NCBI GenBank assembly: GCA_036556025.1
Contig: DATBKD010000093.1
Span: 1,828-65,827 of the forward strand
Length of the DNA: 64,000 nt
Reading direction: 5' to 3'
Source of the DNA: Gemmatimonadales bacterium
GTDB lineage: Bacteria; Gemmatimonadota; Gemmatimonadetes; Gemmatimonadales; GWC2-71-9
The position numbers and the translations under genes were made by a program. Positions 11,687 through 61,404 of this stretch are shown here, piece after piece. Every line of letters starts with the position of its first letter. The stretch's first letter is position 1. The notes beneath the pieces were generated by a model. That model made no database searches, was not told where the DNA came from, and saw nothing but the letters and a program-made list of their open reading frames with translations.

Positions 11687-12660
11687 CCGGGCGCATCCTC
11701 CGCCAGCCAGCAGCGCATGCGATGATCCGCCCCGACCGGCAGCAGGGGCGGCGGGAGCTCGCTCTTCTCGAAGGCCTTGGGGCAGCGCGGGCGGAATCGA
11801 CATCCCTCGGGCCATGCCGTCGGTGGCGGCACGCTGCCTCCTATCGGTATGAGGCGGCTGACCGGGCCACTGATTCGCGGTACCGACGCGAACAGCCCCT
11901 GCGTATAGGGATGAGAAGGCCTGGCAAAGAGCTGTGCGGTCGGCGCCTCCTCCACGATCTGGCCGGCGTACATCACGGCTACCCGATCGGCTCGGCCTGC
12001 GACGATGCCGAGATCATGGGTGATCAGCAGGACGGCCATGCCACGGGTAGCTCGAAGGTGATCCAGCACCTCGAGAATCTGGGCCTGGACCGTGACATCC
12101 AGAGCCGTGGTGGGTTCGTCGGCCACCAGGATCTCAGGTTCAGCACTCAGCGCGATGGCGATCATGACCCGCTGACGCATCCCCCCGCTCAGCTGATGCG
12201 GGTAGGTCTTGAGCCGGCTGCCCGGATCTGGCATGCCCACCTCTTGGAGCAGCCGCAAGGCCCGCTCGCGGGCCTCCGAGCGGGAGACGTCGAAGTGAGC
12301 CCGGACTCCCTCGGAGATCTGATCGCCCACCGTGAACACGGGATTGAGACTGGTCATCGGATCCTGGAAGATCATTCCGATGCGGCGGCCCCGGATATGA
12401 CGGAGGGCTTCTCCTTCCAGGGAGAGCACGTCGGTATCCTGCAGGCGAATGCTGCTCCCCGCCTCGATGCGGCCTGGGGCCGGCACCAGCCGCAGCAGAG
12501 CGAGGCTGGTCAGACTTTTCCCGCAGCCTGACTCCCCGACGAGAGCCAGGGTTCGGCCCCGCTCGAGCGTGAAGCTCACTCCGTCAACCGGGTAAAATCG
12601 GTGGCGCTCCTGATCGGGAAACGAGATCCGGAGATTCTCGACTTCGAGGACTGCGCTCAT
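11683..12660 (-). CDS. Peptide (Opp/Dpp-type) ABC transporter ATP-binding protein, D-type
   Basis: [32 protein letters not shown] 12660 overlaps the permease stop (ATGA). The track ORF start GTG 12669 is an alternative. Confidence 0.85.
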
Positions 12661-43398: not shown

Positions 43399-43716
43399 CT
43401 GGCCGCACCGGCCTTGGCACCCATGTGGATCCGCCACCACACCCATGCGCCGTGCGGCTCTCTCACATCCACCGGGCCAGCGGCAGGCCGACCTGCTGCC
43501 GTTTCGGAAGCGGCGGGGATACATTGTTTTACAAGCTCAGGGAGATCCCGCGGGTTCCTCGTACTCTCGGGACAGGTGGGCACGGATTGTGCGCTCGCGA
43601 ATGCAAATTCTTACGGTGCGCTGGCGCGGGTCCGACGTGACCTGTCCCACAGAGGAGCAGGCCCTAGCGTGCGCTGTCACACATACCGCGAAGCCAACGC
43701 CACGTAGGTTCGATTG

Positions 43717-44388
43717 ATGAGGACTATGCGAAATTCGATTCTGGGGTACATCGCGCTGCCGTTGCTCGTCGGAGTGACCGGGGTTTCGGCCCAGAGCCCG
43801 AGCACGACCACCCGACCGCCGGAGCAGACGGTGCTCTCGCCCGGAGACACCCTCCGGATTACCGTCTGGCGCAAGCCCGAATTCAGTGGCGAGTTCGTGA
43901 TCGGCGCGGATGGGACCTTGATCCACCCCCTGTTTCGGGCGGTTCGGGTCGCGGGAGTGCCCCTGGCCACTGCCGAAGCGAATATCCGCAATTTCCTGTT
44001 GCAGTACGATCAGAACCCGCAGTTCGTGATCGAGCCTCTCCTTCGAATCGCCGTGTCCGGAGAAGTGCCTAAACCGTCGGTCTTCGCGGTGCAACCCCGA
44101 ACCACCATAGCCGAAGCCATTGCCCGGGCCGGTGGCACTACCCAGAACGGCAATCGAAAAAAGGTGCGGGTTATCCGCTCGGAATCGGGGAGCGAGCAGC
44201 GGGTGTTCCTCGCCAACCTGCAGGACCCGGCGGACCCCATCGCATCGTCGATCGTTCGGTCCGGCGACCAGGTCGTCGTTGATCGCCGGAGGTCGTTTTT
44301 CAGGGATATTCTGATCCCCACGTTTACCGTCATCGGGTCGATCGCCTCGATCGGACTCCTCATTGATCGTATCCAGCGCAACAACTGA
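43717..44388 (+). CDS. Polysaccharide export protein (Wza-like; Poly_export + SLBB)
   Basis: Signal peptide, then LSPGDTLRITVWRKPEFSGEFVIGADGTLIHPLF (Poly_export motif) and SLBB-like GEVPKPSVFAV. Possible starts are TTG 43714, ATG 43717 and ATG 43726. Confidence 0.85.
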   Translation: MRTMRNSILGYIALPLLVGVTGVSAQSPSTTTRPPEQTVLSPGDTLRITVWRKPEFSGEFVIGADGTLIHPLFRAVRVAGVPLATAEANIRNFLLQYDQNPQFVIEPLLRIAVSGEVPKPSVFAVQPRTTIAEAIARAGGTTQNGNRKKVRVIRSESGSEQRVFLANLQDPADPIASSIVRSGDQVVVDRRRSFFRDILIPTFTVIGSIASIGLLIDRIQRNN

Positions 44389-44398
44389 GCAGCCTGTC

Positions 44399-46840
44399 AT
44401 GAGCCACTATCCTCCAGACCAACGCTTGCTCCCTGGCTCGGTGACTCCACCTCCGAGTCCTGAGCGAGTCCAGGTAGACACCATCTCTCTGAGCCATTTG
44501 TTCGGCACCCTCCGGCGGAGATGGCGAGCGGTCCTGGGGATGACGGTCGTCGGTGCGGCCTTGGGTGCCTTTCTGGCCTCCAAGGATCCCCCGAGCTACC
44601 AGGCCAAGGCGGTCATTCGCTTCGCCGGGGAGCGGCGCCAGCTGACGAGCGACATGGAGCACCCGCAGCCCGAAGTGAGCCGCACCACGGACCCGATTCT
44701 CTCGCTGGTGCAGCTGGTCACCAGCCGGAGCGTCATGGGGGCAGTGGTCGATTCGCTCGGGCTCCAACTGGTGTCATCCACCCCCGAGTTTCCAACCGGC
44801 ATGCTCAGCAACATCCATGTGGACCCGCGCCTCGGCAGCGACTCGGTCAGACTGGACTTTTCGCCTGAGCAAGTGAAGGCCCAATTCGGCGGCCGGCAGG
44901 CCAGCGCCCGCTATGGGGAAGTGCTCTCGCTCGGAACGGTGCAGTTCGCGGTCACCTCCTATCCCGACATCGCCGAGGCCATGCTGAGCGTGATCCCGCG
45001 GGAGATGGCGATCGATGCCCTGCGCGCCAATGTGATCGTTGGGGCGCGGAGCGGCACCGACGTCATCGACGTCCTGTACACTTCCAACTCTCCCCGGCTG
45101 GCCCAGCAGGTCGTGAACAACACGGTGAAGTCGTTCCAGGAGCTCAATATCCAATCGGCTCGAGAGAAGTCGCAGCGCCGGCGGGAGTTTCTGGAGCAGC
45201 AGTTTACCCGAACCGACAGCATGTTGAGTCAGGCCCAGGCCGAGCTGGCGGCCTTCCGGAGCCGGCAGCAGATCGCCAGCACCAGCAGCAAGCTGGACGC
45301 GCAGCAGGCCGCGCTTTTGGCCCTCGACTCTCGTCGCGCGGAAATCGAGGCCGACCGAAACACCTTCGGCACCTTGCTGCGTCAGCTGAAAAACGGCAGC
45401 GATACCGGCAAGGAAGAGGCGCTGCGTGCGCTGGCCACTTCGCCCGCGCTGGGTGATAACGCCGCTGTGGGCTCGCTGTTTCAGAAGCTGACTGCCTATC
45501 AATTCCGGCTGGATTCGATGACAACGGGGCAGTGGGCCGCTGCGCCGACCAATCCCGACGTGCTGCAGCTTCGCTCGCTGATCAAGCAGACCCAGGACCA
45601 ACTGTCCTCCGCGGTGAGCAGCCACGTCGCGACGCTGGATGCCCGCATCGCTGCCCTGGGAACACTGAGCGCCAAGACCGGCCAGTCGATGCAGGTCCTG
45701 CCGGCCATGGCCGAGGAGGAGGCCCGCCTCAATCAGCGAGTGCAGGCGCTGAGCAACGTTGGCGACCAGCTGCGCCAGGACTACCAGAAGGCGCGGATGG
45801 CCGAAGCGGTCGAGGCCGGGGACGTCGACGTGGTGGACTATGCCGACCTTCCCTACACACCGATTCTGGCGGCCGCATCCATCAAGTTCGGGATCGGCGT
45901 GATTCTCGGCTTGCTGCTCGGCGGCGGACTCGCCTTCCTGTTGGAAGCGCTCAATACCTCCATTCGCCGCCCCGAAGATCTGGAGAGTGCGTTGCACCTG
46001 CCCGGTCTCGCTGTCATCCCCAGGCTCACGGCTGGCTCGCCGGCGCCGAGGCGGCGTCTGCCCGGACTGAAGGGCGGCAAGCATGTCGAGCTACCTCGTT
46101 CGGAGGCGATCGGCACCGTGGCCCAGCCCTTCTCCATCGGGACCGAGGCCTTCCGGATGCTTCGTACCAGTCTGATCTGGTCCGATGGCGCGGAGCAGCT
46201 CAAGACGCTGGTGGTCACCAGCGCGGCTCCTGGCGAGGGCAAGACGCTCACCGCGGCCAATCTGGCGGCGAGCTTTGCCCACGATGGGCTGCACACGCTC
46301 CTCGTGGATTGTGACGTCAGGCGGCCCAAGCTCCATGGGCTCTTCCGGGTTCCGCGTACGCCCGGGCTGCTCGATCTTCTGGCTCCTCCCAGTCCATCGG
46401 CTGACGGCCGGGTGCACTCATTGAGCTTCACGGGGGAGGACGGAGGGGACACGCTGGAGCATGTGATTCGGGACACGCCGATTCGGGGGCTCTCGCTGCT
46501 CACCTGCGGAGCCCTGCCAACCAATGCGTCCAACCTGCTGAGTGGCGTCCGGATGCGTTCGCTGCTCCAGGAGCTCACCAAGCGCTTCGATCTGGTCATC
46601 CTGGACACCCCGCCGGTCCTGGCCACCGCGGACGCGGGGATCCTGGGCAGTCTGGCCGACGGCGTGCTCCTGGTGGTCCGGGCCGGTCAGACGGATCGCT
46701 CTGCGGCGCAGCGCGCCTATCAGCAGCTGGCCAACGTCGGCTCGCGGGTGATGGGCGCTGTGCTCAACGATCCCAAGGGTGAGGTATCCCAGTACGGCGA
46801 CTACTACTATCCCTACGAATACGTCGCCGAGAAGGAATGA
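44399..46840 (+). CDS. Polysaccharide co-polymerase / tyrosine autokinase (Wzc/GumC/EpsB-type)
   Basis: ATG 44399. Wzz-type N-terminal TM plus a long periplasmic coiled region. Cytoplasmic CpsD-like P-loop VVTSAAPGEGKT. C-terminal Tyr cluster YGDYYYPYEYV. Confidence 0.9.
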   Translation: MSHYPPDQRLLPGSVTPPPSPERVQVDTISLSHLFGTLRRRWRAVLGMTVVGAALGAFLASKDPPSYQAKAVIRFAGERRQLTSDMEHPQPEVSRTTDPILSLVQLVTSRSVMGAVVDSLGLQLVSSTPEFPTGMLSNIHVDPRLGSDSVRLDFSPEQVKAQFGGRQASARYGEVLSLGTVQFAVTSYPDIAEAMLSVIPREMAIDALRANVIVGARSGTDVIDVLYTSNSPRLAQQVVNNTVKSFQELNIQSAREKSQRRREFLEQQFTRTDSMLSQAQAELAAFRSRQQIASTSSKLDAQQAALLALDSRRAEIEADRNTFGTLLRQLKNGSDTGKEEALRALATSPALGDNAAVGSLFQKLTAYQFRLDSMTTGQWAAAPTNPDVLQLRSLIKQTQDQLSSAVSSHVATLDARIAALGTLSAKTGQSMQVLPAMAEEEARLNQRVQALSNVGDQLRQDYQKARMAEAVEAGDVDVVDYADLPYTPILAAASIKFGIGVILGLLLGGGLAFLLEALNTSIRRPEDLESALHLPGLAVIPRLTAGSPAPRRRLPGLKGGKHVELPRSEAIGTVAQPFSIGTEAFRMLRTSLIWSDGAEQLKTLVVTSAAPGEGKTLTAANLAASFAHDGLHTLLVDCDVRRPKLHGLFRVPRTPGLLDLLAPPSPSADGRVHSLSFTGEDGGDTLEHVIRDTPIRGLSLLTCGALPTNASNLLSGVRMRSLLQELTKRFDLVILDTPPVLATADAGILGSLADGVLLVVRAGQTDRSAAQRAYQQLANVGSRVMGAVLNDPKGEVSQYGDYYYPYEYVAEKE

Positions 46841-47032
46841 ACGTCCTGCCAGGCAGGCGGTCGCGAGGCCACTCGTAGCCCGCCTGCCAGCCCAGCCGGT
46901 TGGTACACTCCACTTCGCAGCCTGGATCGCACCCAATCTTCGGCCGGTTGCTGCCCGGCTTGGTCAAGGCTACACTGCGGCACGATTGCCGCCGGACGCT
47001 GCTGAGCGCTCACGGAGGATTGTCACACCTGC

Positions 47033-48868
47033 ATGTCGGCTTCTACCGTAACTTTCGATCCGCTGGTCGCTGCGCCCGCCGGGCCGCAGCGAATGAACAT
47101 CGTGATCGTCGGCCACGTCGACCACGGCAAGAGCACCGTGATCGGCCGCCTGCTGGCCGATACCCACTCTCTTCCCGAGGGGAAGCTGGAGCAGGTTCGG
47201 GCGCAGTGCGAGCTCAACTCCAAGCCATTTGAGTACGCGTTCCTGCTCGACGCCCTCAAGGACGAGCAGGCGCAAGGCATCACCATCGATGCTGCCCGGG
47301 TGTTCTTCAAGAGTCGGCTGCGGCCCTACCTGATCCTGGATGCTCCGGGCCACATCGAGTTTCTGAAGAACATGATCACCGGCGCGGCGCGGGCCGAGGC
47401 CGCTCTGCTGGTGATCGATGCCGCTGAGGGGGTCCAGGAAAACTCCCGGCGCCACGGCTATATGGTCTCGCTCCTCGGGGTGAAGCAGCTCGCCGTGGTG
47501 GTCAACAAGATGGATCTGGTCGGCTGGGATCGCGCCGTCTACGACCGCATCGTCCGGGAATACGGCGCCTTCCTCGATCAGGTCGGGATCCGGCCAGCCA
47601 GCTTCATTCCGGTATCCGGACGGAGTGGTGACAACATCGCCGAGCGCTCGGCCAATCTTCCCTGGTATCAGGGCCCCACCGTCCTCGATGCGCTCGATGC
47701 CTTTCGCAGCGAGCCCGCCCCGGTCAAGCGGCCATTCAGGATGCCGGTCCAGGATGTCTACAAGTTCACCAAGCAGGGGGATGACCGGCGGATCGTGGCC
47801 GGCACCATCGACTCCGGTGCGGTGAGCGTAGGCGATACCGTGATCTTCTATCCCTCGGGCAAGAAGAGCCGGGTGAAAAGCATCGAGGCGTTCAATCGGC
47901 CGATCCAGGCCCGCGCCGAGGCCGGCTCCGCCGTGGGGTTCACGCTCCAGGAGCAGATCTACATCACTCGCGGCGAGATGGCGACCGTGGAGCACGAGCC
48001 CCGCCCCCAGGTAACCACCCGGCTCCGGGTGAGCCTCTTCTGGCTGGGGAAGGAGCCGCTGGTGAAGCGGAAGGAGTATCTCCTCAAGCTGGGAACCGCC
48101 CGGGTCACGGTTCGGGTGGAGGACGTGCTCCGCGTCATGGATGCTTCCACCCTCGGCGCGACCGAGCAGGGGAGCGCGGTGCAGCGCCATGATGTGGCCG
48201 AATGCGTGCTCAAGCTGGATCGCGCCATCGCCTGTGACCTGGCCGAAGACGTGCCGGCCACCAGCAGGTTCGTGCTGGTGGACGATTTCGAGATCCGAGG
48301 CGGCGGCATCGTCCGGGAAGCCTTGCCCGACCGACAGGCTGCGATGCGGGACCGGGTGCTGCTGCGGAACTACAAGTGGGAGCCCAGCATCATTCAGCCC
48401 GAGCACCGGGCGGAGAAATACAATCAGAAGGCCGCGCTGATTCTGGTCACCGGGGAGCACGAGGCCGATCGGAAAGGCGTTGCCAAGGCGCTCGAGCGCA
48501 AGCTGTTCGAAGACGGCAAAGTGGTCTACTTCCTGGGCATCGGCAGCGTGCTCTACGGGGTGGATGCCGATATCGAGCGGAAGCCGGAAAATCGGCTGGA
48601 GCACATGCGCCGCCTGGCCGAGATCGCCAACCTGATGCTCGACGCCGGCATCATTCTCGTGGTTGCGGCGGCTGAGCTTACCCAGGAAGACCTCGAGGTC
48701 ATCAAGACCGCGGTTCAGCCGGATTGGATCGAGACCATCTGGGCCGGCGATACCATCACCACCGATCTCCCCATCGACCTTCAGCTCCCCGGTGGCGCCG
48801 TGCCGGAGGCGGTGGATCGCCTCAAGGCGCATCTCCAGGACAAGGGGATCATCTTCCGCCCATGGTAG
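47033..48868 (+). CDS. cysN: Sulfate adenylyltransferase subunit 1 (CysN-type GTPase) fused to a P-loop-less APS-kinase-like domain
   Basis: GTPase motifs [14 protein letters not shown] and NKMD. The C-terminal 170 aa align to APS kinase, but the P-loop reads [12 protein letters not shown] instead of TGLSGSGKS, and LDGD reads LGIG. Confidence 0.85.
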
Positions 48869-49620
48869 GCGCCGAGCTCCGGTCGGCGGTTATTGGTTTG
48901 GCGCGCGAGGCGGGGCGTGCCACCATGGCCTACTATGGCGAATCTGCTCCCCAGATCCGGGAAAAGAGCGACCAGAGTCCGCTCACCCTGGCCGACGAGG
49001 CAGCTCACGGGATTCTGGTGCAGGGCCTCCGGCGGCTGGATCCCGCCACTCCGGTGGTTTCGGAGGAGGGCGACATTGCGCCGTTCGAGACCAGGCGCGA
49101 GTGGCGCCGGTTCTGGCTGGTGGATCCTCTCGACGGAACCAAAGAGTTCATCAAGCGCCGGGCGGAGTTCACCGTCAACGTGGCGTTGATCGAGAATGGC
49201 GAGCCGGTCTTCGGGGTGGTGCTGGCACCGGCCCTCGATCTGCTGTATTGGGCCGTGAAGGGGGGAGGCGCCTGGCGCGAAGAGAAGGCCGGTCCCGCTG
49301 AGCGGATCTACTCCAGCACCCCGGCCCCGGGGACACCGCTCACGGTGGTGGAGAGCCTATCTCATCCCTCGCCCGAGCTGGAGGAGTACCTCCGTACCAT
49401 TCCGGTGGCCCTGCGGGTCAAGGCCGGCAGCTCCCTCAAGTTCTGCTGGGTCGCGGAAGGCCGCGCGGACATCTATCCCCGCCTGGGCCCCACCATGGAA
49501 TGGGACGTCGCCGCGGGCGACTGCGTCTACCGTCAATCGGGGCGGAATGGTGAGCGTCCGTCTCCTCTCACGTACAACAAGCCGGATCTGCGCAACGCCA
49601 ACTTCGTGATCGGCCTGTGA
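48862..49620 (+). CDS. cysQ: 3'(2'),5'-bisphosphate nucleotidase (PAP phosphatase)
   Basis: ATG 48862 overlaps the cysN stop (ATGGTAG). Inositol-monophosphatase-fold motifs [17 protein letters not shown] and WDVAAG. Confidence 0.85.
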
Positions 49621-50168
49621 GTGCCGGTCCCGTGCAGGACGCGAGAACCGGGCGGCCCGCGCCGGTGTTATGGTTCACTGGGCTGTCCGGCTCGGGGAAG
49701 AGCACCATCGCCGTCCGGGTGCAGGACGAGCTGGCGCGCCGGGGAGTCGAGGTCGAGTACATCGATGGAGATGCGCTGCGGGAGGTATTTCCTAATACCG
49801 GCTTCACCCGCGCAGAACGGGAGGAGCACCTGCGCCGCACCGGCTACATGGCGAGTCGGCTCGCGGCCCATGGAGTGACCGTCGTGGCCTCGTTGGTCTC
49901 GCCCTACCGGGAGTCGCGGGAGTTCGTCCGAACGCTCTGTCCCAGCTTCATGGAGATCTACGTGGCGACTCCGCTGGAAGAATGCGAGCGGCGAGATGTG
50001 AAGGGCCTCTACGCCCGAGCTCGCCGGGGTGAAATTCGACACTTCACCGGCATCGACGACCCCTACGAGCCACCCGAGCACCCGGAGCTGGCCTTCGATA
50101 CCCGTGATCTGAGCGTGGACGAGTGCGTGGCGAAAGTGCTCGCGCGGGTTGCTGGCACTCACCTTTGA
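49617..50168 (+). CDS. cysC: Adenylyl-sulfate (APS) kinase
   Basis: GTG 49617 overlaps the cysQ stop (GTGA). Intact P-loop [15 protein letters not shown], plus IDGDALR and RDVKGLY. Confidence 0.9.
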
Positions 50169-51061
50169 TGGCAGGCGAGATGGATCACCTCGATCAACTG
50201 GAGCACCGGAGCGTTCATATTCTCCGGGAAGCGTACGCCAATTTCAAGAACCTGGGGATGCTCTGGTCCATCGGGAAGGACAGCACCGTTCTCCTGTGGC
50301 TGGCCCGGAAAGCCTTCTTTGGCCATGTGCCCATCCCTCTCATTCATATCGATACCTCGTTCAAGATTCCCGAGATGATCGCCTACCGGGACCGTTTGGC
50401 ACTGGAATGGAACCTGACCATGATCTACGGTCAGAACCGGCACGCGCTGGAGGGGAAGCGCACGTATCCCGACGGGGCAATCGATCGCATCGCCTGCTGC
50501 AAGGCGCTCAAGACCGACGCCCTGAAGTACACCTTGAGCGGGGAATGGCCCCGCTATCGGCTGAACCACGCCAAGAAGGTCTACGAAGTCGACCGCAACA
50601 CCGAGCCGTTCACCGGAATCATCGTTGGGGTCCGGGCCGACGAAGAGGGCAGCCGCTCGAAGGAGCGCTACTTCTCCCCCCGGACGACCCAGTCTCATTG
50701 GGACGTGGGCGACCAGCCACCCGAGTTCTGGAACCAGTTCAAGACCGAGTTCGCCCCGGGAACCCATCTACGGATTCATCCGCTGCTCGATTGGACCGAG
50801 CTCAATATCTGGGAATACATCCGTCGGGAGCAGATCCCTACGGTCTCGCTCTACTACAATCAGGGCGACGGGAAGCGGTACCGCTCCCTGGGTTGCTATC
50901 CCTGCACCCAGCCGGTCGAGTCCGACGCCCGCAACGTCGACGAGATCATCGCGGAGCTGCAATCGGGGAAGTTCGCCAACGTCGCCGAGCGGTCAGGTCG
51001 GGCGCAGGACAAGGCGGGTGGGGGCGGACTGGAGGTCCTTCGGCGGGACGGCTACATGTGA
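50168..51061 (+). CDS. cysD: Sulfate adenylyltransferase subunit 2
   Basis: ATG 50168 shares 1 nt with the cysC stop (TGATG). [32 protein letters not shown] (PP-loop) and RSLGCYPCT. Confidence 0.95.
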
Positions 51062-51082
51062 GACCGTGAAGCGTTTCGCGCT

Positions 51083-52006
51083 TCACTTCCAGTGGCTGAG
51101 ATCGCGGTTCATGATCCGGGCGAGCAAGCCCACCTCCTCGCGGAAGGCCTCCGCCAACTCGGCCCGGAATTCGGGAGACAAGGGAGACCGGTGCTCCTTG
51201 ACGGTGTTGAGTTCCACGATCTTGCGTTTGACCGCGACGATCCCCTCGGCACCGGTGATCTGCTTGAGACCGCGGAAGGCACGGTGCAGCAGCGGCGGCG
51301 GCTTGCGGTAGAAGTCTCGCAACCAGGCCATCCTCGCGCGCTTGTTCTCGTTGATGCGGGGAAAGGCCGTCCGATTGTCATGAGGGACCTCGAGAAACTC
51401 CATGACCTCGTCGTAGACCTTCCGGGGTGAGGCCGCGAAGTCGTCGAACAAAATCAGCTTGACCTGTTCCTTCGGAAAATGAGTCAACACCCGTTGAGCC
51501 TGCGTCCCGAATCGTCCAATCTCCGCATACTGGATCAGGAGCGGTGATGGGATTCGGAGAGGCAGGTCCAAGCCCCGGGCGCGCCGTTCCTGCAGCCGCC
51601 AGGCGCTCTCGAAATCGCTTTCCGTCTCCAGGGACCAGTACAAGAGCTGAGAGTGCAGCGAATACGCCATGTCAATCGGATTGCGAAACATGGCGATGAT
51701 TCTGGCCCTGGGATTGAATGCCTGAATGTTGGGGATGGCCGTGGTCGACCGCAGATAATAGACCGAAGCCTCGCCCACCCGGAGATGACGTTCGGCACTG
51801 TCTCTGAACAGGTCGCTGTAGGCCTCCATTGTCTGGACCTCACGGTAGGGTCCCAGGTCGGTGGCAAAGAAGTGGGGCTCTTTGACCTCCGGCATGAAGA
51901 TGTTGGGGTGCGGACGAAGGTATTCGTACAACGCCGTCGTGCCGCACTTCGGGGCACCCACGATAAAGAAGTTCGGTTTAGCGGCCAAGCTCAGACCCCG
52001 CGTCAT
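51083..52006 (-). CDS. PAPS-dependent sulfotransferase (Sulfotransfer_1 / heparan-sulfate-type fold)
   Basis: ATG 52006. 5'-phosphosulfate-binding loop FFIVGAPKCGTTALYEYL and 3'-phosphate-binding motif IIAMFRNPIDMAYS. The upstream 111 codons of the track ORF were dropped. Confidence 0.8.
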   Translation of the reverse strand: MTRGLSLAAKPNFFIVGAPKCGTTALYEYLRPHPNIFMPEVKEPHFFATDLGPYREVQTMEAYSDLFRDSAERHLRVGEASVYYLRSTTAIPNIQAFNPRARIIAMFRNPIDMAYSLHSQLLYWSLETESDFESAWRLQERRARGLDLPLRIPSPLLIQYAEIGRFGTQAQRVLTHFPKEQVKLILFDDFAASPRKVYDEVMEFLEVPHDNRTAFPRINENKRARMAWLRDFYRKPPPLLHRAFRGLKQITGAEGIVAVKRKIVELNTVKEHRSPLSPEFRAELAEAFREEVGLLARIMNRDLSHWK

Positions 52007-52145
52007 GGTTTGGTCGGCGCAGAAGCAATCCGCCGGTCTCTGTCTCCCTGAAGCATATTGCGTGCACGTCCGGCCCGCCCCGCCATCGGACTGTCCGGGA
52101 AGCCAATATTGGTTCTGTAAGGGAATAGCGGACAAGCCCTTGCGG

Positions 52146-53210
52146 CTATGCCCGGCCGGAGGCGGAGGCCCCCAGAAACTGTTCGTGGAACTCCTGCAGC
52201 GTGGCTCCGCTAAAGTATATCGCGACGGTACTGAAAAGCTGCTCCAGATGATGGTAGAGTCGCTCGATCGAATCGGCGGTTCGGAAGGTGGGACTGCCGC
52301 CCGGCATGAACTCGGACGAGTGCAGCATGAGCTCCGCATAATTGCGTTGCTCGCTCCGGACCCGCTGCAGGACTTGCAACATCAGCCCCAGATTCCGCCC
52401 GTTCGGCCGCAGCCACAGCACTGGCGGAAACAGCCGATTCCATGCTCGGCGGAGGAAGGACCCTTCCGGAAGATGGCTCCCGATGGCACGGGCAACCTGA
52501 GCTCGGGACTGCAGGATCGTCATCGGCAGCTCCCAGAGCGCAGAGCCTCCCGGCCGGCTGATATCCTCGAGGTCCATCCGGTAGGCCCCTTCGGGGAAAT
52601 GGGAAAAGTCGGTTCCCCCCTGCTGCGACGGATCACCCTTCATCCGCTCCCAGGAGACATGTGGGGTCACCGAGCAGTCGATGGCGTAGCCGTGGTCGAC
52701 CAGCAGGCGGGCATACGCAGCGTTGAAGCTCCAACGGCCCGCCCGATGGCTCACCATCTTCACCGCGAAGGTGTCCTCGAGCAGGCTGGTCAGAAACTGG
52801 ATCTTCGCCCGCATGGCTTCCTGGGGGTACTCGATCAAGTACGGCTGATATCTGAAATCATCCACGGTGAGGGGGGTAATCGGCGGAGAGTTCCAGGCGT
52901 GTATATGGACGCCAACTTCGGCGGTTCCCCGACGTAGAGCGTCCCGAGCGAACTCCTGGTACGCCGGCGCCATGGCCATTTCGTAATTGGTGAGATAGGT
53001 GGGCTTGAGCCCGTAGCGCTCGCACAGCGCCTGAAACCTCGGCAAGAAGGAGGCGTTCCGGGTGGTAATCTCCTTGGGGGCCGACCACAGATCGTCCCCC
53101 TCGGTGTCAATGGTGATGAGGAACGCCGGCCGGCCAGTGAGGCTGGATTTATCACTCGAACGCGGAGACGCAGCAGTCACGCGAGCCTCAGGTGCTGGAA
53201 TGGGCAGCAA
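52146..53210 (-). CDS. Polysaccharide-deacetylase-like / glycoside-hydrolase-deacetylase barrel protein (family call tentative)
   Basis: 354 aa. FLITIDTEGDDLW near the N-terminus and HIHAW...HRAGRW resemble metal-dependent carbohydrate deacetylase-type barrels. Start is TTG 53210 or GTG 53180. Same strand as, and upstream of, the sulfotransferase. Confidence 0.5.
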   Translation of the reverse strand: MLPIPAPEARVTAASPRSSDKSSLTGRPAFLITIDTEGDDLWSAPKEITTRNASFLPRFQALCERYGLKPTYLTNYEMAMAPAYQEFARDALRRGTAEVGVHIHAWNSPPITPLTVDDFRYQPYLIEYPQEAMRAKIQFLTSLLEDTFAVKMVSHRAGRWSFNAAYARLLVDHGYAIDCSVTPHVSWERMKGDPSQQGGTDFSHFPEGAYRMDLEDISRPGGSALWELPMTILQSRAQVARAIGSHLPEGSFLRRAWNRLFPPVLWLRPNGRNLGLMLQVLQRVRSEQRNYAELMLHSSEFMPGGSPTFRTADSIERLYHHLEQLFSTVAIYFSGATLQEFHEQFLGASASGRA

Positions 53211-53254
53211 TGTATCACCACGCTATCATTCTGGCACATTCACCCGTGAAGCTC

Positions 53255-53701
53255 ATGCTCTCCAAGAAAGCGAAATACGCACTGAAGGCGCTCCTCGCGC
53301 TGGCAGACAACCCCGATGACGAGCCGGTGCGTATTTCGGATCTCGCTCGGGAACAACGGATCCCGCCGAAGTTTCTGGAGCTGATTCTGTTGGGCCTCAA
53401 GAACCAGGGCATTCTGCAGAGTCGGAAAGGGAAGGGGGGTGGCTACCGCCTGGCCCGAAACCCGGCGGATATCTATGTGGGTCAGATCGTGCGAATGTTC
53501 GATGGTCCTCTCGCCCCCGTCCCCTGCGCCAGCCAAACGGCATATGTCCCGTGCGCCGACTGCCGCGATGAGGCTGTCTGTGCCGTTCGCCTCGCGATGA
53601 AGGAGGTCCGGGACGCCACAGCAAAGATCCTGGACAACACCAGTATTGCCGCGCTGCAACAGAGGGTCGCTACCACCCAGTCTCCCGTCGCCATAGAGTA
53701 G
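53255..53701 (+). CDS. Rrf2-family transcriptional regulator (CymR/IscR-like)
   Basis: ATG 53255 gives MLSKKAKYALKALLALA...ISDLAREQRIPPKFLELILLGLKNQGILQSRKGKGGGYRLA (Rrf2 wHTH). Cys cluster PCASQTAYVPCADCRDEAVC. Confidence 0.85.
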   Translation: MLSKKAKYALKALLALADNPDDEPVRISDLAREQRIPPKFLELILLGLKNQGILQSRKGKGGGYRLARNPADIYVGQIVRMFDGPLAPVPCASQTAYVPCADCRDEAVCAVRLAMKEVRDATAKILDNTSIAALQQRVATTQSPVAIE

Positions 53702-53731
53702 GCTCCAGGCCGCCCTCTGAGCAGGAAAGTT

Positions 53732-53747
53732 TGGCATCGGAATTGCC
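53732..53747 (+). promoter_or_regulatory. Sigma-54 (-24/-12) promoter candidate upstream of the porin / sulfate-uptake genes
   Basis: TGGCATCGGAATTGCC matches TGGCAC-N5-TTGC at 9 of 10 positions with correct spacing. A sigma-70-like TTTACT-N17-TATATA (53750-53778) overlaps it, so the promoter class is unresolved. Confidence 0.5.
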
Positions 53748-53771
53748 TATTTACTCTATCTAGTAAGTAGG
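53746..53771. promoter_or_regulatory. AT-rich inverted repeat, candidate operator (Rrf2 regulator encoded immediately upstream)
   Basis: CCTATTTACT-N6-AGTAAGTAGG. The arms are complementary at 9 of 10 positions. It overlaps the -12 element / -35 hexamer of the candidate promoters. Confidence 0.45.
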
Positions 53772-53982
53772 GTATATAGGACTTGGCTCAGGCGCCTCGT
53801 TCAACCCACAGCTACCGGAGGTCGCCATCTCAAGCTCGGGGAGATCCCGCATAAGTGCGGTCCGCTATTGGATTTCGGCCGTTTTTCTGGGAGCCGCTAC
53901 GCTTCCAACTGCCCCACAGCTGGTCGCACAGCAGCCCTCCGACAGCGCGCTCGAGGCCCGGGTCAATGAGCTCGACCAGCAG

Positions 53983-55230
53983 GTGCGCATCCTCCTGCGC
54001 CTCCGTGAGCTTGCGGCGGACAGCGCAGCCGCGGCGGCCAAGGACAAGGTGACGCCGACCGCCAGTGTCAAGGATGGCTTCAGCATCAAGTCAGCCGATG
54101 GCAAGTTCGCCGTCCGGCTAAAGGGCCTGATCCAGACCGACGGCCGATTCTTTCTTTCGGATAATGCGGTCCCGGTTACCAACACCTTCTTTCTCCGTCG
54201 AGCCCGACCCATCCTGGAGGCCACTGTCGGGAAGTACCTGGAGTTCCGTCTGCAGCCGGACTTCGGGCAGGGTACGACAGTGCTGTTCGATGCATACTCC
54301 GACGTGAGAGTCTTGCCGGCATTCTCCCTGCGAGTTGGCAAATTCAAGCCTCCGGTAGACCTCGAACGACTGCAATCGGCCGGCGACATCGTGTTTGCCG
54401 AACGCGCGCTCACGACTAATCTGGCCCCGAATCGGGACGTCGGCCTCCAGCTCTCGGGCGATCTGGACAGTGGTTTCGTGGTGTGGCAGGCGGGCGTTTT
54501 CAACGGCGTGCCGGACCTCGGCAACGGTGACGGGGACGTAAGCGACGCCAAGGACTTCGCGACGCGGGTCTTCGTTCAGCCCTTCAAGACCGGCTCGTTC
54601 AGGGGCCTAGGTCTTGGCATGGCCGGGAGCACTGGCACCGAGCGGGGCAGCACCGCGGCGCCGCAGCTCGCCAGCTACCGCACCCCCGGCCAGCAATCCT
54701 GGTTCCGCTACATCTCCAGCACGACCACGCCGGCCAGCAACGTCTTTGCGGATGGCGTTCGCCAGCGGGTCGCCCCGCAGGCGTACTTCTACCGCGGGCC
54801 GCTCGGCCTCCATGGCGAGTACATCCAGTCGCGGCAGCGGGTGAGTCGGGCCGGCTTCGCCCCAGTGAAGCTCAAGCACACCGCGTGGCAGGCCACGGGG
54901 TCCTACTTCCTCACTGGGGAAAAGAACACGTTCCGCAGCGCGCCGCCCAACAGGCCATTCGATCCCAAGGCAGGCGCGTTCGGCGCGGTCGAGCTGGCGG
55001 CGCGATACTCTGAGCTCACCATCGACGGGGCAGCCTTCCCGAACTACGCCAGTCCTACCACGACGCCCCAAAAGGCCAAGGCCTGGGCCCTCGGACTCAA
55101 CTGGTATCTCGCTCGAGCCATCAAGGTCGTCGTTGACTATGAGCACACCACGTTTGTCGGCGGTGCCGCGGGCGGTGCCGACCGCGAGCCGGAGAACTTT
55201 GTGGTGAGCCGCGTCCAATACTCCTTCTGA
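53983..55230 (+). CDS. Phosphate-selective-porin O/P family anion porin (5' end probably extends upstream to about 53827)
   Basis: [27 protein letters not shown] and the C-terminal VSRVQYSF beta-barrel terminus fit the OprO/OprP family. GTG 53983 is the first canonical start, but the in-frame upstream sequence encodes the signal peptide (see findings). Confidence 0.75.
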
Positions 55231-55261
55231 TCTCTACTCCGTGAGAGGCACGTCGACTCCC

Positions 55262-56290
55262 ATGCGAATTCGACTCTTCAGCGGCGGCTGGATCCTCTTG
55301 TTTGCCCTCGTGGCCGGCGCAGATCGTGTCGCGGCTCAGGCTGCGCCGAAGTCGGTAACCCTGCTCAACGTCTCCTACGATCCGACTCGTGAGCTGTACG
55401 AGGACTTCAACAAGCAGTTCGCCACCTATTGGAAGACCAAGACCGGCCAGGACGTGACCATCCGCCAATCCCATGGGGGCTCGGGCAAACAAGCTCGATC
55501 CGTCATCGATGGGCTGCAGGCCGATGTGGTCACACTGGCTCTGGCATACGACATCGATCAGATCGCCGAGAAAGGCGGCCTGCTGCCGGCCGATTGGCAG
55601 AAGCGGCTGCCCCACAACAGCTCGCCCTACACCTCGACCATCGTGCTCCTGGTCCGCAAAGGAAACCCCAAGGCGGTGCATGACTGGGGTGACCTCACGA
55701 AGCCTGGCGTCTCGGTGGTGACCCCTAACCCCAAGACATCCGGCGGGGCGCGATGGAACTATCTGGCGGCCTGGGGGTGGGCCCTGCGGCAGCCGGGCGG
55801 CGACGAGGCCCAGGCCAAGAATTTCATCACCCGGCTCTACCGCAACGTCCCGGTGCTCGATGCGGGTGCTCGAGGGTCGACCACGACGTTCGTCGAGCGC
55901 GGCATTGGCGACGTGCTGGTTGCCTGGGAGAATGAGGCGTTACTGGCGATCAAGGAGCTGGGCCCGGACAAATTCGAGATTGTGGCCCCTTCGGTAAGCA
56001 TTCTCGCCGAGCCTCCGGTGGCCGTAGTTGAGAAGATCGCCGGCAAGCACGGCACCCAGCAGGTGGCCCAAGCCTATCTCGAGTACCTGTACTCGCCGGA
56101 AGGGCAGCAGATCGCGGCTCGAAACTTCTATCGACCCCGGCTCGCGTCGGTCGCGGAGAAATACCAGGCCCAGTTTTCCAAAGTGACCTTGTTCACGGTC
56201 GACGAGGTGTTCGGTGGGTGGAAGAAGGCCAATGCAACCCACTTCGCCGACGGGGCGCTGTTCGACCAGATCTATCAGCCGGGGCGTTAG
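55262..56290 (+). CDS. sbp: Sulfate/thiosulfate ABC transporter substrate-binding protein
   Basis: [27 protein letters not shown] signal peptide. [28 protein letters not shown] and [16 protein letters not shown] are Sbp/CysP signatures. GTG 55241 is an alternative start. Confidence 0.9.
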
Positions 56291-56318
56291 CTCCGGCTGC
56301 CGGTCCCCCCACGAAGGG

Positions 56319-57152
56319 ATGGCGATGCGGCCCACGTCACGAAGCGTGCTCCCCGGTTTCGGACTCTCGCTTGGGGTCACCTGCACCTATCTGAGCCTCA
56401 TGGTGCTGCTCCCCCTCGCGACCCTGTTCGCGCGGACCGCCGAGCTGCCCTGGCCCACCTTCTGGGCCACGGTCACCAGCCCCCGGGTGGTTGCTTCGTA
56501 TCGGGTGACCTTTGGCGCTTCCCTGGTCGCGGCGCTGGTCAATACGGTGTTTGGCCTGCTGGTGGCCTGGGTCTTGGTGCGCTACCGATTTCCCGGCCGC
56601 CGGTTGGTGGATGCGATGGTGGATCTCCCCTTCGCGCTGCCGACGGCAGTCGCCGGCATTGCCCTCACGACCCTGTACGCCTCGAACGGCTGGATCGGGA
56701 GCCGCCTCGGCCCGCTCGGCATCACGGTGTCCTACACCTGGCTGGGCATCACGGTCGCGTTGACCTTCATTGGGCTGCCGTTCGTGGTGCGAACGGTGCA
56801 GCCGGTGCTGGATGATCTCGAGGCCGAGGTGGAAGAAGCGGCGGCGAGCCTGGGTGCCGGGCGGTGGCAGATTGTTGCCCGGGTCGTGTTTCCCACGATA
56901 GGACCGGCGCTGCTCACCGGATTTGCGCTGGCCTTTGCCAGAGCGGTGGGGGAGTACGGCTCGGTGGTGTTCATCTCGGGCAACTTGCCGATGAAGACCG
57001 AGATCGTGCCCCTGCTCATCATCACCAAGCTGGAGCAATACGACTACGCGGGCGCTACCGCGGTGGCGCTGGTGATGCTGATTGTATCGTTCGGACTCCT
57101 GCTGGCCGTCAATCTGCTTCAGTGGGCGGCCCGTCGCCGCCCGGCGGTCTGA
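56319..57152 (+). CDS. cysT: Sulfate ABC transporter permease CysT
   Basis: ATG 56319 (GAAGGG RBS). [14 protein letters not shown]-terminus and [16 protein letters not shown] loop, typical of CysT. Confidence 0.9.
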
Positions 57153-57155
57153 GCG

Positions 57156-58070
57156 ATGGCGACGCTGGCCCTCTCCCGATCGGCTAGGGTTGCGCCGAGA
57201 ACCATTACCAGGGCGACCGGCGAATCGCGGGCAGTACGCTGGACGCTGATTGTCATCGCGTTGGCCTTCCTGACGCTGACCTTGTTCCTGCCGCTTGCGT
57301 TGGTGTTCACCCAGGCGCTCGCGAAGGGGATGCCCGCCTATCTGAGCGCCATCCGGGACGCCGATGCGCTGAGCGCTGCCAAGCTCACGTTGCTCATCGC
57401 GTCGATCGCGATTCCGGTCAACCTGATCTTCGGGCTGGCCGCGGCCTGGTGTATCTCGAAGTTCACCTTCCCGGGCAAGAACCTGCTCATCACCCTGATC
57501 GATCTGCCCTTCGCGGTCTCCCCGGTGATCTCGGGGATGATCTTCGTGCTCCTCCTGGGGGCCCACAGCTGGTTCGGCTCGTGGCTGCAGGACCACGACA
57601 TCAAGATCATCTTCGCGGTGCCTGGCATGGTGCTCGCCACCCTCTTCGTGACCGCTCCGTTCATCGCCCGGGAGCTGATTCCGCTCATGCAGGAGCAGGG
57701 GACCGAGGAGGAAGAAGCGGCCATCGTGCTGGCCGCTGGCGGTTGGCAGACCTTCTGGCGGGTCACGCTCCCCAACATCAGGTGGGGACTGCTCTACGGG
57801 CTCATTCTCTGCAACGCTCGGGCGATGGGTGAGTTCGGAGCCGTCTCCGTGGTCTCCGGACACATCCGCGGGGTCACCAACACCCTGCCGCTCCACGTGG
57901 AGATTCTCTACAACGAATACGCCTTCGCCGCCAGCTTTGCCGTGGCCTCGGTGCTCACGCTGCTCGCGCTGGTCACCCTGGGACTCAAGGCACTGGTGGA
58001 ATGGCAGCAGCGGCGGGTCACGGCGGATCTCGCCGAAGTGGACCGCGGGCCCGAAAGGACGGCGGCATGA
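57156..58070 (+). CDS. cysW: Sulfate ABC transporter permease CysW
   Basis: 304 aa. [34 protein letters not shown] loop. Follows cysT by 3 nt. Confidence 0.9.
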
Positions 58071-59131
58071 GCATCGAGGTCCGCAACCTGCGCAAGACCT
58101 TCGGCGACTTTGTCGCCCTCGACAACGTCAGTCTGCAGGTAGCTGGAGGAGAGCTGGTGGCCCTGCTCGGCCCATCCGGTTCGGGCAAGACCACGCTGCT
58201 GCGGATTATCGCGGGGCTGGAGCCAGCAGATCAGGGCACCATCCATTTCCACGGGGAGGACGCTACCGGCCGGCCCGTCCGCGAGCGGCAGGTCGGCTTC
58301 GTGTTCCAGCATTACGCCTTGTTCCGGCACATGACCGTCTTCGAGAACATAGCCTTTGGCCTGCGGGTCCGGCCGCGAGCAGTGCGTCCATCAGCGGCCG
58401 AAATCCGGGAAACCGTGATGGGGCTTCTGCGCCTGGTGCAACTGGACGTTCTCGCCACGCGGCGGCCTTCGGAGCTGTCCGGGGGACAGCGCCAGCGGGT
58501 GGCGCTCGCGCGGGCACTCGCGGTGAAACCCAAGGTCCTCCTGCTGGATGAGCCCTTCGGCGCGCTGGATGCCAAGGTGCGGAAGGAGCTCCGGCGTTGG
58601 CTCCGACGGCTCCACGAAGAGGTTCACGTCACCAGTGTCTTCGTGACCCACGATCAGGAAGAGGCTCTGGAGGTCTCCGACCGGGTTGTGGTGATGAACC
58701 AGGGGCGGATCGAGCAAAGTGGCACACCAGAGGAGGTCTATGAACACCCGGCCACGCCGTTCGTCTACGGCTTTCTGGGAGACGTCAACCTCTTCCAGGG
58801 GCGCATCCACCAGGGTCGCGTGAGTATCGGAGAGGGTGAGCTGGACGCACCCGAGTGGGCCGGCACAACGGATCAAGCCGGCCTGGCATATGTCAGGACA
58901 TACGACGTCGAGCTCGCCGCATCGCCCTCGGGCTCCGCTTCCATGGAAGCGGTGGTCCGACACGTTCGGGCGTTTGGGCCGTTAGTCCGGCTGGAGCTGG
59001 ATCTCATCCAGAGTGGACGCACCATCGACGCTCACATTCCCCGGGCTCGGTTCGACGCTCTGGCCACTGGGAAAGGTCAACGGGTCTATGTGTCGCCGAC
59101 AAACATGCGCGTGTTTGTGGAGCCTGGGTAA
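58067..59131 (+). CDS. cysA: Sulfate ABC transporter ATP-binding protein CysA
   Basis: ATG 58067 overlaps the cysW stop (ATGA). [38 protein letters not shown] and a C-terminal TOBE-like domain. Confidence 0.95.
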
Positions 59132-59144
59132 CGCTATCGAGCCG

Positions 59145-59990
59145 ATGATTGCGTCCCGCGTGGCGCAGTGGCTATCATCGGAGGTCACCGGCGCAGGAGA
59201 CCCGCCATTGGTCGTCAAGCGGCAGGCTACGGAGCAGCTCTCGCTCGAGGATGCGCTGGCAAAGCTGCCGCGGTCGGAGGAATACGCCAGGAAGATTCTC
59301 GCCCGCCTGCAATCGATCCGACCGCTCCCGCCAGATTCCACCACCGTCGTCGACATCGGAGCGGCTCAGGGAAGGTTTGTGATCGGGTGTGCCAGATTGG
59401 GCTACCGGGCGATCGGAATCGAGCCTTGGGCAGCGGCCCGTGAAGCGGCGGACGAGTTGATTGCCTTGTCAGGGATCGACGCCAAGGTTCTGCCGGGTAC
59501 GGCGGAGTCGACCGGTCTGGCGAGCGAACAATTCGACGTGGTGACTTGCGGTGCGGTGATCGAGCACGTGAAAGACGCCCAGGCGGCTTTCGACGAGGCG
59601 TTCCGTATTCTCAAGCCGGGCGGGATCTTCTGGTTCTGCGCGGCAAGCAGCCGCTCCCCGCGCCAGCATGAGATCGACGGCTTCCCCCTGTTCGGCTGGT
59701 ACCCGGATGGGTTAAAGCGCCGGATCATGGAGTGGACCCGGGTGAACAAACCCCACCTCGTCGGGTACACGGACGCTCCCGCCATCAACTGGTTTACGCC
59801 TGGCAAGGCGCGCCGCATGCTGCGCCGAGCCGGCTTCCGCAATCACGTCTACGATCGATGGGATCTGCGGCAGCCGTCGGAAGGCGGCTCCCGCTATCGT
59901 GCCGCTTTGCGCGTCATCAAGCTGGGAGCGCCTTTCAAGCTGTTGGCTGACGTGGCCCTTCCGGGCTGTGCCTACGCCACTCTGAAGTGA
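59145..59990 (+). CDS. Class I SAM-dependent methyltransferase
   Basis: ATG 59145. Motif I VVDIGAAQGRF and post-I/II FDVVTCGAVIEHV...LKPGGIFWF. Confidence 0.8.
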   Translation: MIASRVAQWLSSEVTGAGDPPLVVKRQATEQLSLEDALAKLPRSEEYARKILARLQSIRPLPPDSTTVVDIGAAQGRFVIGCARLGYRAIGIEPWAAAREAADELIALSGIDAKVLPGTAESTGLASEQFDVVTCGAVIEHVKDAQAAFDEAFRILKPGGIFWFCAASSRSPRQHEIDGFPLFGWYPDGLKRRIMEWTRVNKPHLVGYTDAPAINWFTPGKARRMLRRAGFRNHVYDRWDLRQPSEGGSRYRAALRVIKLGAPFKLLADVALPGCAYATLK

Positions 59991-60224
59991 GGCTCGCGGG
60001 CCGAGCCGGTGCGGCCCCACCGCTGGATTGCCTTCCTGCCACACATCCCTGCAGATCTCGACGCTCGGAGCTGCCGGCATCCTGACTGTGCCCGCGAAAC
60101 GCATTGCAGTACATTCCCTTAGCAATCTTGCCCCGGCCGGAGGTCTCTCCCAAACCGGGGCATGGTTTCTGCGCCTGGCGGTCGGTTCGCGCCGACCCAG
60201 CAATGCCTCATCGACCACCTGGCG

Positions 60225-61403: not shown

Positions 61404-61404
61404 C

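Follow-up and report, generated by a model that had tools for sequence, protein, structure and literature searches.

A predicted N-deacetylase gene adjoins a predicted carbohydrate sulfotransferase gene in a sulfated-exopolysaccharide locus of a Gemmatimonadales bacterium

In a 64-kb stretch of DNA from a Gemmatimonadales bacterium (contig DATBKD010000093.1; hereafter the window) a gene for a predicted polysaccharide N-deacetylase of the WabN/WalW family lies directly upstream of one for a predicted carbohydrate sulfotransferase dependent on 3'-phosphoadenosine 5'-phosphosulfate (PAPS), and both are embedded in a locus for a sulfated exopolysaccharide (EPS). The initial annotation of this DNA had raised the possibility that the pair is a split, bacterial version of the animal N-deacetylase/N-sulfotransferases (NDST), the enzymes that N-sulfate heparan sulfate, while allowing equally for O-sulfation alongside an unrelated deacetylation. 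The evidence gathered here, drawn in part from some 170 related loci, fits the latter alternative better, and the reading that we favor, with moderate confidence, is that the two enzymes tailor the same polysaccharide independently, one by a de-N-acetylation that leaves free glucosamine (GlcN) and the other by O-sulfation. We argue for independence because the two families are distributed separately across genomes, a sulfotransferase ortholog coexists in a related locus with a deacetylase that has amine-modifying partners of its own, the window sulfotransferase shows no sign of functional divergence from its orthologs, and its catalytic-region motif is of the type seen in heparan sulfate 3-O-sulfotransferases (3-OSTs). 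Going by sequence and predicted fold, both proteins are of known kinds, the first a WabN/WalW member and the second a heparan-sulfate-type Sulfotransfer_1 member; what is new is the context of the deacetylase.

The gene pair

The deacetylase open reading frame (ORF; 52146..53210, minus strand, 354 residues from a TTG start at 53210) is followed on the same strand by the sulfotransferase, which the ORF list gives as part of a longer frame (51083..52339) and whose 307-residue product begins MTRGLSLAAKPNFFIVGAPKCGTTALYEYL from the ATG at 52006, so that the gene occupies 51083..52006 and a spacer of 139 nt (52007..52145) separates the two. The ORF list and this gap bear out the initial description of two same-strand genes 139 nt apart, and every motif quoted there is present: RPAFLITIDTEGDDLW, HIHAW and HRAGRW in the 52146..53210 product, and FFIVGAPKCGTTALYEYL and IIAMFRNPIDMAYS in the sulfotransferase. 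Both are real genes rather than chance ORFs, given their biased GC content at third codon positions (GC3 0.75-0.77, in a window of 65% GC), their many homologs, the Pfam match of the sulfotransferase and the invariant columns in the deacetylase alignment. As a homolog 99% identical to the deacetylase has 344 residues, translation probably begins at the GTG at 53180 (344 residues) rather than at the TTG at 53210; homologs of the sulfotransferase usually have 301 residues, versus 307 in the window. Scans of the spacer for Rfam families and for terminators both came back empty, which makes co-transcription of the pair plausible.

A 22-nt block within the spacer, CGTGCACG(C/T)AATATGCTTCAGG (window 52047-52068, minus strand), recurs at 1232-1253 of a related locus, L089, whose deacetylase is 81% identical, whereas the spacer sequence on either side of it has diverged. 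An internal promoter and an operator are possible roles; the block was found in these two loci only, a sample of two that carries no statistical or comparative weight. On the other side of the deacetylase, in the divergent region of about 74 nt that precedes an Rrf2-family regulator gene (53181-53254), lies the sole sigma-70-like promoter match within 3 kb (TGGGCA-17-TATCAT, 53201-53229, plus strand).

The upstream protein as a predicted WabN/WalW-family deacetylase

Scans with Pfam and NCBIfam models, Polysacc_deac_1 among them, gave no match for the upstream protein, and sequence and profile searches against the Protein Data Bank (PDB) returned chance-level matches only. Its family comprises more than 4500 homologs at E<=1e-3 among 8000 scored candidates, and an alignment of 32 members (55-81% identity) has 68 invariant columns, including those of D35-T-E37-G-D39, H102-x-H104-A-W, H155-R156-A-G, D178-C-S and H297-S-S-E300. 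The motifs IDTEGD, HxHAW, HRAG, DCS and LHSSE are all found in the window protein, in 32 of the 32 members and also in the Klebsiella sequence. BLASTP aligned the window protein over 325 residues, with 54% identity and E=1e-132, to the protein that occupies the WabN position in Klebsiella michiganensis. There the gene belongs to the waa cluster for the lipopolysaccharide (LPS) core, where it has waaQ on one side and a wabK-like gene/waaL on the other and is downstream of wabG- and wabH-like family 4 glycosyltransferase (GT4) genes; this is the position of WabN in the gene order described for Klebsiella and Edwardsiella (PMC5485987). WabN is the deacetylase of LPS-borne N-acetylglucosamine (GlcNAc) and is required together with WabH to put GlcN into the outer core (PMC8552709). 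NCBI labels the enterobacterial homologs "polysaccharide deacetylase family protein", "deacetylase" or "WalW", and relatives at 51-61% identity occur across many phyla in the 80 loci drawn from species-representative genomes, including Klebsiella, Proteus, Serratia, Photorhabdus and Xenorhabdus. The WabN/WalW family as a whole has thousands of members for which neither Pfam nor NCBIfam provides a model.

The AlphaFold (AF2) model of the protein is of good quality (predicted local distance difference test, pLDDT, 87; predicted template-modeling score, pTM, 0.87), with residues 1-23 predicted to be disordered. Its best Foldseek matches are ArnD (8t0j, 3.5e-10), a Mycobacterium smegmatis protein (3rxz, 2e-9) and Helicobacter pylori HP0310 (1.5e-8), and further ones are Bordetella WbmS, PdaC and chitin deacetylases, all at a probability of 1.0, besides many other members of carbohydrate esterase family 4 (CE4). 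Enzymes of glycoside hydrolase family 57 (GH57) also appear among the matches (E from 2.4e-7 upward), and one could therefore suppose that the protein is not a deacetylase but uses a barrel of this kind as a GH57-like glycoside hydrolase or transferase. We give this almost no credence, since CE4-type structures rank higher, align over more of the target and have target-normalized TM-scores of 0.62-0.66 against 0.28-0.35 for GH57, and since the protein combines 54% identity to the WabN-position protein with retention of all the invariant Asp, His and Glu residues. The putative metal-site motifs (D-T-E, H-x-H) are variants of the canonical TFDD and H-S/T-xx-H; in an hhalign comparison of the family profile with Escherichia coli ArnD, HLHAW aligns with GLHAW of ArnD, at a probability of 11% that is too weak for a mapping of catalytic residues. 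Taken together, the homology to the WabN-position protein and the fold ranking, with ArnD and CE4 enzymes best and GH57 lower, uphold the deacetylase-type barrel first suggested for this gene and characterize its product as a predicted WabN/WalW-family polysaccharide (GlcNAc) N-deacetylase.

The protein has no hydrophobic stretch at its N-terminus and, by analogy with WabN, should act in the cytoplasm. It shares with the WabN proteins of Klebsiella, Serratia and Proteus full-length homology, the invariant residues, the lack of a signal peptide, a length of about 320-345 residues and a predicted CE4-like (beta/alpha) barrel. Unlike theirs, its gene is located outside a waa cluster and not beside a WabH-type GT4, but within a sulfated-EPS/PAPS island and directly upstream of a sulfotransferase, and because of this location its substrate is probably the EPS repeat unit rather than the lipid A-core.

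The downstream protein as a predicted heparan-sulfate-type sulfotransferase

The downstream protein matches the Pfam models Sulfotransfer_1 (E=1.6e-18; 67.5 bits at a cut-off of 22) and Sulfotransfer_3 (1.1e-12) and has more than 6000 homologs. It carries the 5'-phosphosulfate-binding (5'-PSB) loop PKCGTT, the 3'-phosphate-binding (3'-PB) motif FRNPIDMAYS and KEPHFF in the catalytic region, with PKCGTT and RNPIDMAYS invariant or nearly so among 28 homologs; the Pfam matches and both binding motifs agree with its earlier identification as a PAPS-binding Sulfotransfer_1 enzyme. Sequence matches in the PDB are the uncharacterized bacterial structural-genomics protein 3rnl (3e-34), 3-OST-3A (4e-8) and the N-sulfotransferase domain of NDST1 (3e-6). 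With the AF2 model (pLDDT 79) Foldseek recovered 3rnl (4e-15), 3-OST-1 (1e-8) and 1nst (5e-8), and placed the curacin (polyketide), TPST (tyrosyl-protein) and cytosolic SULT sulfotransferases at 5e-6 or weaker, at least two orders below. Because the sequence and fold rankings agree, we assign the protein to the predicted carbohydrate sulfotransferases of heparan-sulfate type. We reject an aryl or lipid sulfotransferase on the fold ranking, and the clustering with lipid or aryl enzymes that the initial annotation had regarded as damaging to its proposal is thus not what we find: in sequence and in Foldseek comparisons the protein groups with the heparan-sulfate-type enzymes. Its likeness is greatest to 3-OST-1, -3 and -5 and to 3rnl, which are its best matches in sequence and structure and have the PSB loop, the 3'-PB motif and E-P-H-F-F in common with it; it differs from the animal 3-OSTs in an identity of only about 20-25% and in an extra helical C-terminal region (residues ~220-300, partly modeled at low confidence).

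These comparisons of sequence and fold do not separate N- from O-sulfotransferases. The motif that follows the PSB loop reads K-E-P-H-F-F in the window enzyme, as in the 3-OSTs, and F-E-E-I-Q-F-F in NDST1 (checked against 1nst), where E642, which we take to be the catalytic base, is the second Glu (counted from K614). A Glu-x-His pair matters in the 3-OSTs, and the E-P-H-F-F of the window enzyme is a weak indicator pointing to 3-OST-like O-sulfation. To see whether the sulfotransferase has changed function in the window lineage we aligned 116 orthologs, seven of which, the window included, form a close clade with at least 79% identity to the window protein. The mean identity between this clade and the rest is 71.8%, versus 75.7% within the rest (minimum 64.8%), and only three positions that are conserved in the rest are consistently changed in the clade (P55R, E126L and R153P). 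Neither accelerated nor directed change is apparent from this alignment in the window-clade sulfotransferases.

Distribution of the pair across genomes

To survey the neighborhoods of the deacetylase family we used 162 loci, 80 from genomes, 80 from metagenomes and two more (L081 and L082). A tblastn search with the window sulfotransferase found no match in the first 80 loci, and a sulfotransferase hidden Markov model (HMM) search of the Sulfotransfer_1/3 type was positive in the fetched flanks of six of the 162, five of them independent as L097 and L098 are on one contig. The sole adjacent case is L089 (81% identical), where the sulfotransferase is 188 nt from the deacetylase; the distance is 1.8 kb in L081 (72%), 4.7 kb in L097/L098, 6.9 kb in L015 and 9.3 kb in L082. 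Of the 118 deacetylase loci whose flanks extend for 1.5 kb or more in each direction, none has a sulfotransferase within 400 nt. In a Pfam census the gene immediately upstream (122 loci) most often encodes a GT4 (44) or a GT9 heptosyltransferase (32), and the one immediately downstream (126 loci) a GT9 (18), a FemAB/Acetyltransf_6 protein (17) or a GT4 (14). An ATP-grasp gene, mostly fused to a low-molecular-weight phosphatase domain, is found downstream in about 10 of the 126, and an HMM search detected FemAB-like genes in 36 deacetylase loci. Sulfotransferases are absent from the top 25 downstream-neighbor families and from the top upstream families alike. The arrangement of the window, with the deacetylase-sulfotransferase pair between Rrf2 and CysD, is repeated in contig P0002, L089 and L173, whose deacetylases are 80-81% identical to that of the window; as only these closest deacetylases repeat it, the pairing is real but limited to one narrow lineage.

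Two further observations arose from this survey. Outside the enterobacteria the family is usually found in the order GT4 - deacetylase - amide-forming enzyme (loci L001-L168; e.g. L137 7491-8252 and L101 10987-12723), suggestive of a general module in which GlcNAc is added and then deacetylated and its amine is re-acylated. The contig Ga0268386_10000046 (L097/L098) repeats with a period of 20,351 bp, its first 200 nt recurring exactly; in a position-by-position comparison the two loci taken from it differ at about 10% of sites. Each copy has a WabN-family gene with a sulfotransferase-like ORF at a distance of 4.7 kb, and related circular elements joined in a concatemer, or else an artefact of assembly, may account for the repeat.

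Seen from the sulfotransferase side, orthologs at 70-75% identity were found on long contigs in five loci (L083/84, L085/86, L087/88, L169 and L170/171), three of these sets being named Gemmatimonadales, and the best named relatives of both window proteins are likewise Gemmatimonadales metagenome-assembled genomes. All five loci have Wza-Wzc-CysN-CysQ-CysC-CysD, four to five sulfotransferases, and then Wzx, GT4, Wzy, GT2 and GT4; L085 has in addition an Rrf2-porin-Sbp-CysTWA block. The window sulfotransferase is the ortholog of one specific paralog among these (~71% identity, versus ~30% to the other paralogs), and a sulfotransferase on a further contig (P0190) is 82% identical to it. None of the five independent loci (L083, L085, L087, L169 and L170) has a deacetylase homolog within 10 kb of the ortholog, nor do their gene lists contain any other Pfam deacetylase; a 280-residue protein upstream of the ortholog in L087, considered as a remote deacetylase, was rejected at an hhalign probability of 0.2%. 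In L169 the sulfotransferase ortholog is overlapped at its stop codon by an S1-family sulfatase gene (10903-12414; Pfam Sulfatase + SGSH_C), so that sulfate-removing and sulfate-adding enzymes apparently share an operon; many bacterial sulfatases have an SGSH_C domain, which therefore gives no evidence of sulfamidase activity.

In L085 Rrf2 directly follows cysD, and for this reason the deacetylase-sulfotransferase pair of the window looks like an inverted insertion between these two genes. Such a rearrangement also lends itself to an explanation in which the deacetylase acts on the LPS core as WabN does, without any relation to the EPS, the adjacency being a by-product of the insertion. The only characterized members of the family do act on the LPS core, and waa-type clusters account for 44 of the 162 deacetylase loci; the neighbors vary across the family, which makes the waa location a feature of the enterobacterial subgroup and not of the family at large. 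Against an LPS-core role, the close relatives in L082 and L174 have the deacetylase within a Wzx/Wzy EPS cluster, and the surroundings of the deacetylase in the window contain neither heptosyltransferase nor Kdo-transferase genes. We accordingly hold an LPS-core role to be very improbable.

The nearest outgroup and the fate of the freed amine

The deacetylases closest to the window lineage, at 64-68% identity (L081, L082, L174 and L175), all adjoin a conserved protein of about 340 residues without a Pfam match, near a gene for an acyl-carrier-protein (ACP)-like protein of about 75 residues. In L082, L174 and L175 these are followed by genes for an AMP-ligase and a GNAT-type acetyltransferase, immediately after which comes the deacetylase, whereas L081 instead has, downstream, an FkbH-like gene. 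These cassettes (L175 1772-6278; L082 6417-11008; L174 6432-11020; L081 6113-8957) point to an N-acyl exchange, in which the acetyl group would be removed and another acyl group attached. In L082 and L174 the cassette is situated inside the Wzx/Wzy EPS cluster itself, and L174 also has an ortholog of the window sulfotransferase (66%) about 6.6 kb away on the other strand; sulfation and amine modification appear to be separate there.

It could be supposed on this basis that the window enzyme, too, serves an N-acyl exchange with an unlinked partner, be it the GNAT encoded 15 kb away (36400-37410) or a gene outside the window, and that the sulfotransferase O-sulfates independently. All four outgroup loci have the ~340-residue protein and the ACP-like gene, and three of the four the AMP-ligase and GNAT, in keeping with this idea; yet the cassette proteins find nothing in the 64-kb window by tblastn, and the window GNAT has 336 residues and is encoded away from the deacetylase, with no homology between it and the cassette GNAT detected. 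We think an exchange of this kind decidedly unlikely in the window lineage.

The main point in favor of the split NDST is a family-wide tendency for the neighbor of the deacetylase to modify the freed amine. According to this proposal the deacetylase unmasks the amine of a GlcNAc on the lipid-linked unit and the adjacent sulfotransferase N-sulfates it, giving N-sulfoglucosamine (GlcNS) in the EPS. The family is recurrently found beside amine-modifying enzymes, the cassette is lost in the window lineage, the pair is probably co-transcribed and kept together there, with a looser linkage in L081, and the sulfotransferase belongs to the clade that holds the NDST sulfotransferase domain. N-sulfated hexosamine has moreover been reported in the EPS of Pontiella by a nitrous-acid assay, in a study that did not identify the enzymes (PMC7356697). 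The pair also has a likeness to NDST, if in outline only: a metal-type deacetylase with a (beta/alpha)7 barrel is joined by a PAPS sulfotransferase from the structural clade of the NDST one. One may tentatively picture a lineage that lost the N-acyl cassette and had the core sulfotransferase moved downstream of the deacetylase, the two then making GlcNS as a soluble two-protein prokaryotic counterpart of NDST; this scenario strikes us as doubtful, though it deserves more consideration than the other alternatives.

What tells against the split NDST comes from both proteins and from their distribution. The five independent loci with a sulfotransferase ortholog have no deacetylase within 10 kb, in L174 the ortholog coexists with a deacetylase and its N-acyl cassette, and the directly adjacent pair occurs in no independent lineage among the deacetylase loci sampled; the proposal thus fails the co-occurrence test, pairing being confined to one narrow lineage. 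The sulfotransferase gives no sign of functional divergence and its catalytic motif is 3-OST-like rather than NST-like, with E-P-H-F-F versus E-I-Q-F-F in NDST1. The deacetylase domain of NDST1 is a (beta/alpha)7 barrel with the triad D320/H389/H393 and is homologous to Agd3 (PMC10864358). Neither NDST1 nor Agd3 is among the 50 Foldseek matches of the window deacetylase at E<=1e-3, from a library that includes NDST1 structures, and the window protein, with H-x-H in place of H389-xxx-H393, is nearer to ArnD/CE4 than to this Agd3/CE18-like domain. Unlike NDST, finally, the window system consists of two separate genes that do not co-occur across genomes. All in all, we judge a split NDST to be unlikely.

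Several points nevertheless weigh against independent tailoring. The two genes point the same way, the 139 nt between them hold no terminator-like site, their arrangement is preserved across four contigs that belong to the lineage (those of the window, P0002, L089 and L173), and they are linked, in a different gene order, in L081 as well. Elsewhere the deacetylase often has as its neighbor a FemAB-like, ATP-grasp or GNAT enzyme, which would re-derivatize the amine set free, and none of these is encoded nearby in the window lineage; by analogy, therefore, the sulfotransferase could be the amine-modifying partner. The relatives described as free of a deacetylase are so within the 10 kb examined, an identity of 70% does not guarantee that orthologs use the same acceptor, and the E-x-H motif is not a proven discriminator of O- from N-sulfotransferases.

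The surrounding exopolysaccharide island

The EPS locus spans 43714 to 63504 of the window and provides for its own supply of PAPS, for the recycling of 3'-phosphoadenosine 5'-phosphate (PAP) and for sulfate import. Apart from the pair, its genes are all on the plus strand. First come a Wza-type polysaccharide export protein (43714-44388) and a Wzc tyrosine autokinase/co-polymerase (44363-46840). They are followed by a CysN-type large subunit of sulfate adenylyltransferase with a degenerate C-terminal domain resembling adenosine 5'-phosphosulfate (APS) kinase (47033..48868; TIGR02034 2.5e-101, GTP_EFTU, partial APS_kinase), a CysQ-type 3'(2'),5'-bisphosphate nucleotidase for PAP recycling (48724..49620; Inositol_P 1.2e-46), the adenylyl-sulfate kinase CysC, which makes PAPS (49617..50168; APS_kinase 1.5e-53), and the sulfate adenylyltransferase small subunit CysD (50123..51061; PAPS_reduct 1.4e-36), which is convergent with the sulfotransferase. 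CysQ probably starts near 48859, its homologs in related loci having 252-253 residues, and CysD at 50168, with homologs of 297 residues. Beyond the pair, and divergent from the deacetylase, is the Rrf2-family regulator (53192..53701; Rrf2 1.7e-37), with a probable start at 53255, and then a block (53983..59131) in which an anion porin (Pfam Porin_O_P) precedes the sulfate ABC importer formed by Sbp (55241-56290), CysT (56214-57152), CysW (57156-58070) and CysA (58001-59131). Genes for EPS assembly complete the locus, namely a methyltransferase (59013-59990), a GT4 (60162-61403), a Wzy polymerase (61405-62655) and a GT2 (62656-63504), and a further GT4 is encoded at 39.8-41.2 kb. The order GT4-Wzy-GT2 is the same in L083, L085 and L169, where the methyltransferases are placed elsewhere. 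No Wzx flippase was found among the window ORFs scanned, and the sulfotransferase HMM of the Sulfotransfer_1/3 type detects a single sulfotransferase in the 64-kb window.

Two ORFs of 647 residues, at 41372-43315 and 28915-30858, have a strong GC3 bias and match no Pfam model convincingly. In L087, L088 and L170 an unannotated gene of about 610-626 residues is found beside Wza, in the same position as the window ORF at 41372-43315, the likeness being one of position; because of this shared location the gene at that position may belong to the EPS machinery.

Sulfotransferases embedded in Wzx/Wzy clusters have been described in cyanobacteria and some marine bacteria (PMC8205485, PMC11641403, PMC11766843), and the window island resembles the synechan xss cluster of Synechocystis and the clusters for sulfated capsular polysaccharide of Vibrio and Cobetia in having Wzx/Wzy-type assembly with an embedded sulfotransferase. 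It differs from them in the addition of PAPS synthesis genes, CysQ, Rrf2, the porin and the sulfate ABC importer, and in that the window lineage has a single sulfotransferase together with a WabN-family deacetylase.

Implications

We propose that the pair are tailoring enzymes of a Wzx/Wzy-type sulfated-EPS pathway in a bacterium that has Gemmatimonadales as its closest named relatives. Both enzymes would act in the cytoplasm on the lipid-linked (presumably undecaprenyl-linked) repeat unit, independently of each other. The porin, Sbp and CysTWA would import sulfate, from which CysD/CysN and CysC would make PAPS. The WabN-family deacetylase would strip the N-acetyl group from an N-acetylhexosamine, probably GlcNAc, to leave a free amine; the sulfotransferase, as ortholog of a core EPS-locus sulfotransferase of relatives that have no deacetylase, would transfer sulfate from PAPS to a sugar hydroxyl, with CysQ recycling the PAP released.

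Should the two activities prove to be coupled after all, the pair would provide the first bacterial route to GlcNS to be defined genetically and would bear directly on the microbial manufacture of heparin, for which the expression of active NDST in bacteria has been named as the bottleneck (PMC13353177). Under independent tailoring, which we favor, the locus would represent a self-sufficient sulfated-EPS island outside the cyanobacteria, able to make its own PAPS, recycle PAP and import sulfate, at a time when bacterial sulfated polysaccharides are still described as rare or largely cyanobacterial (PMC13390465), and the polymer predicted from it would bear both free amines and sulfate esters.

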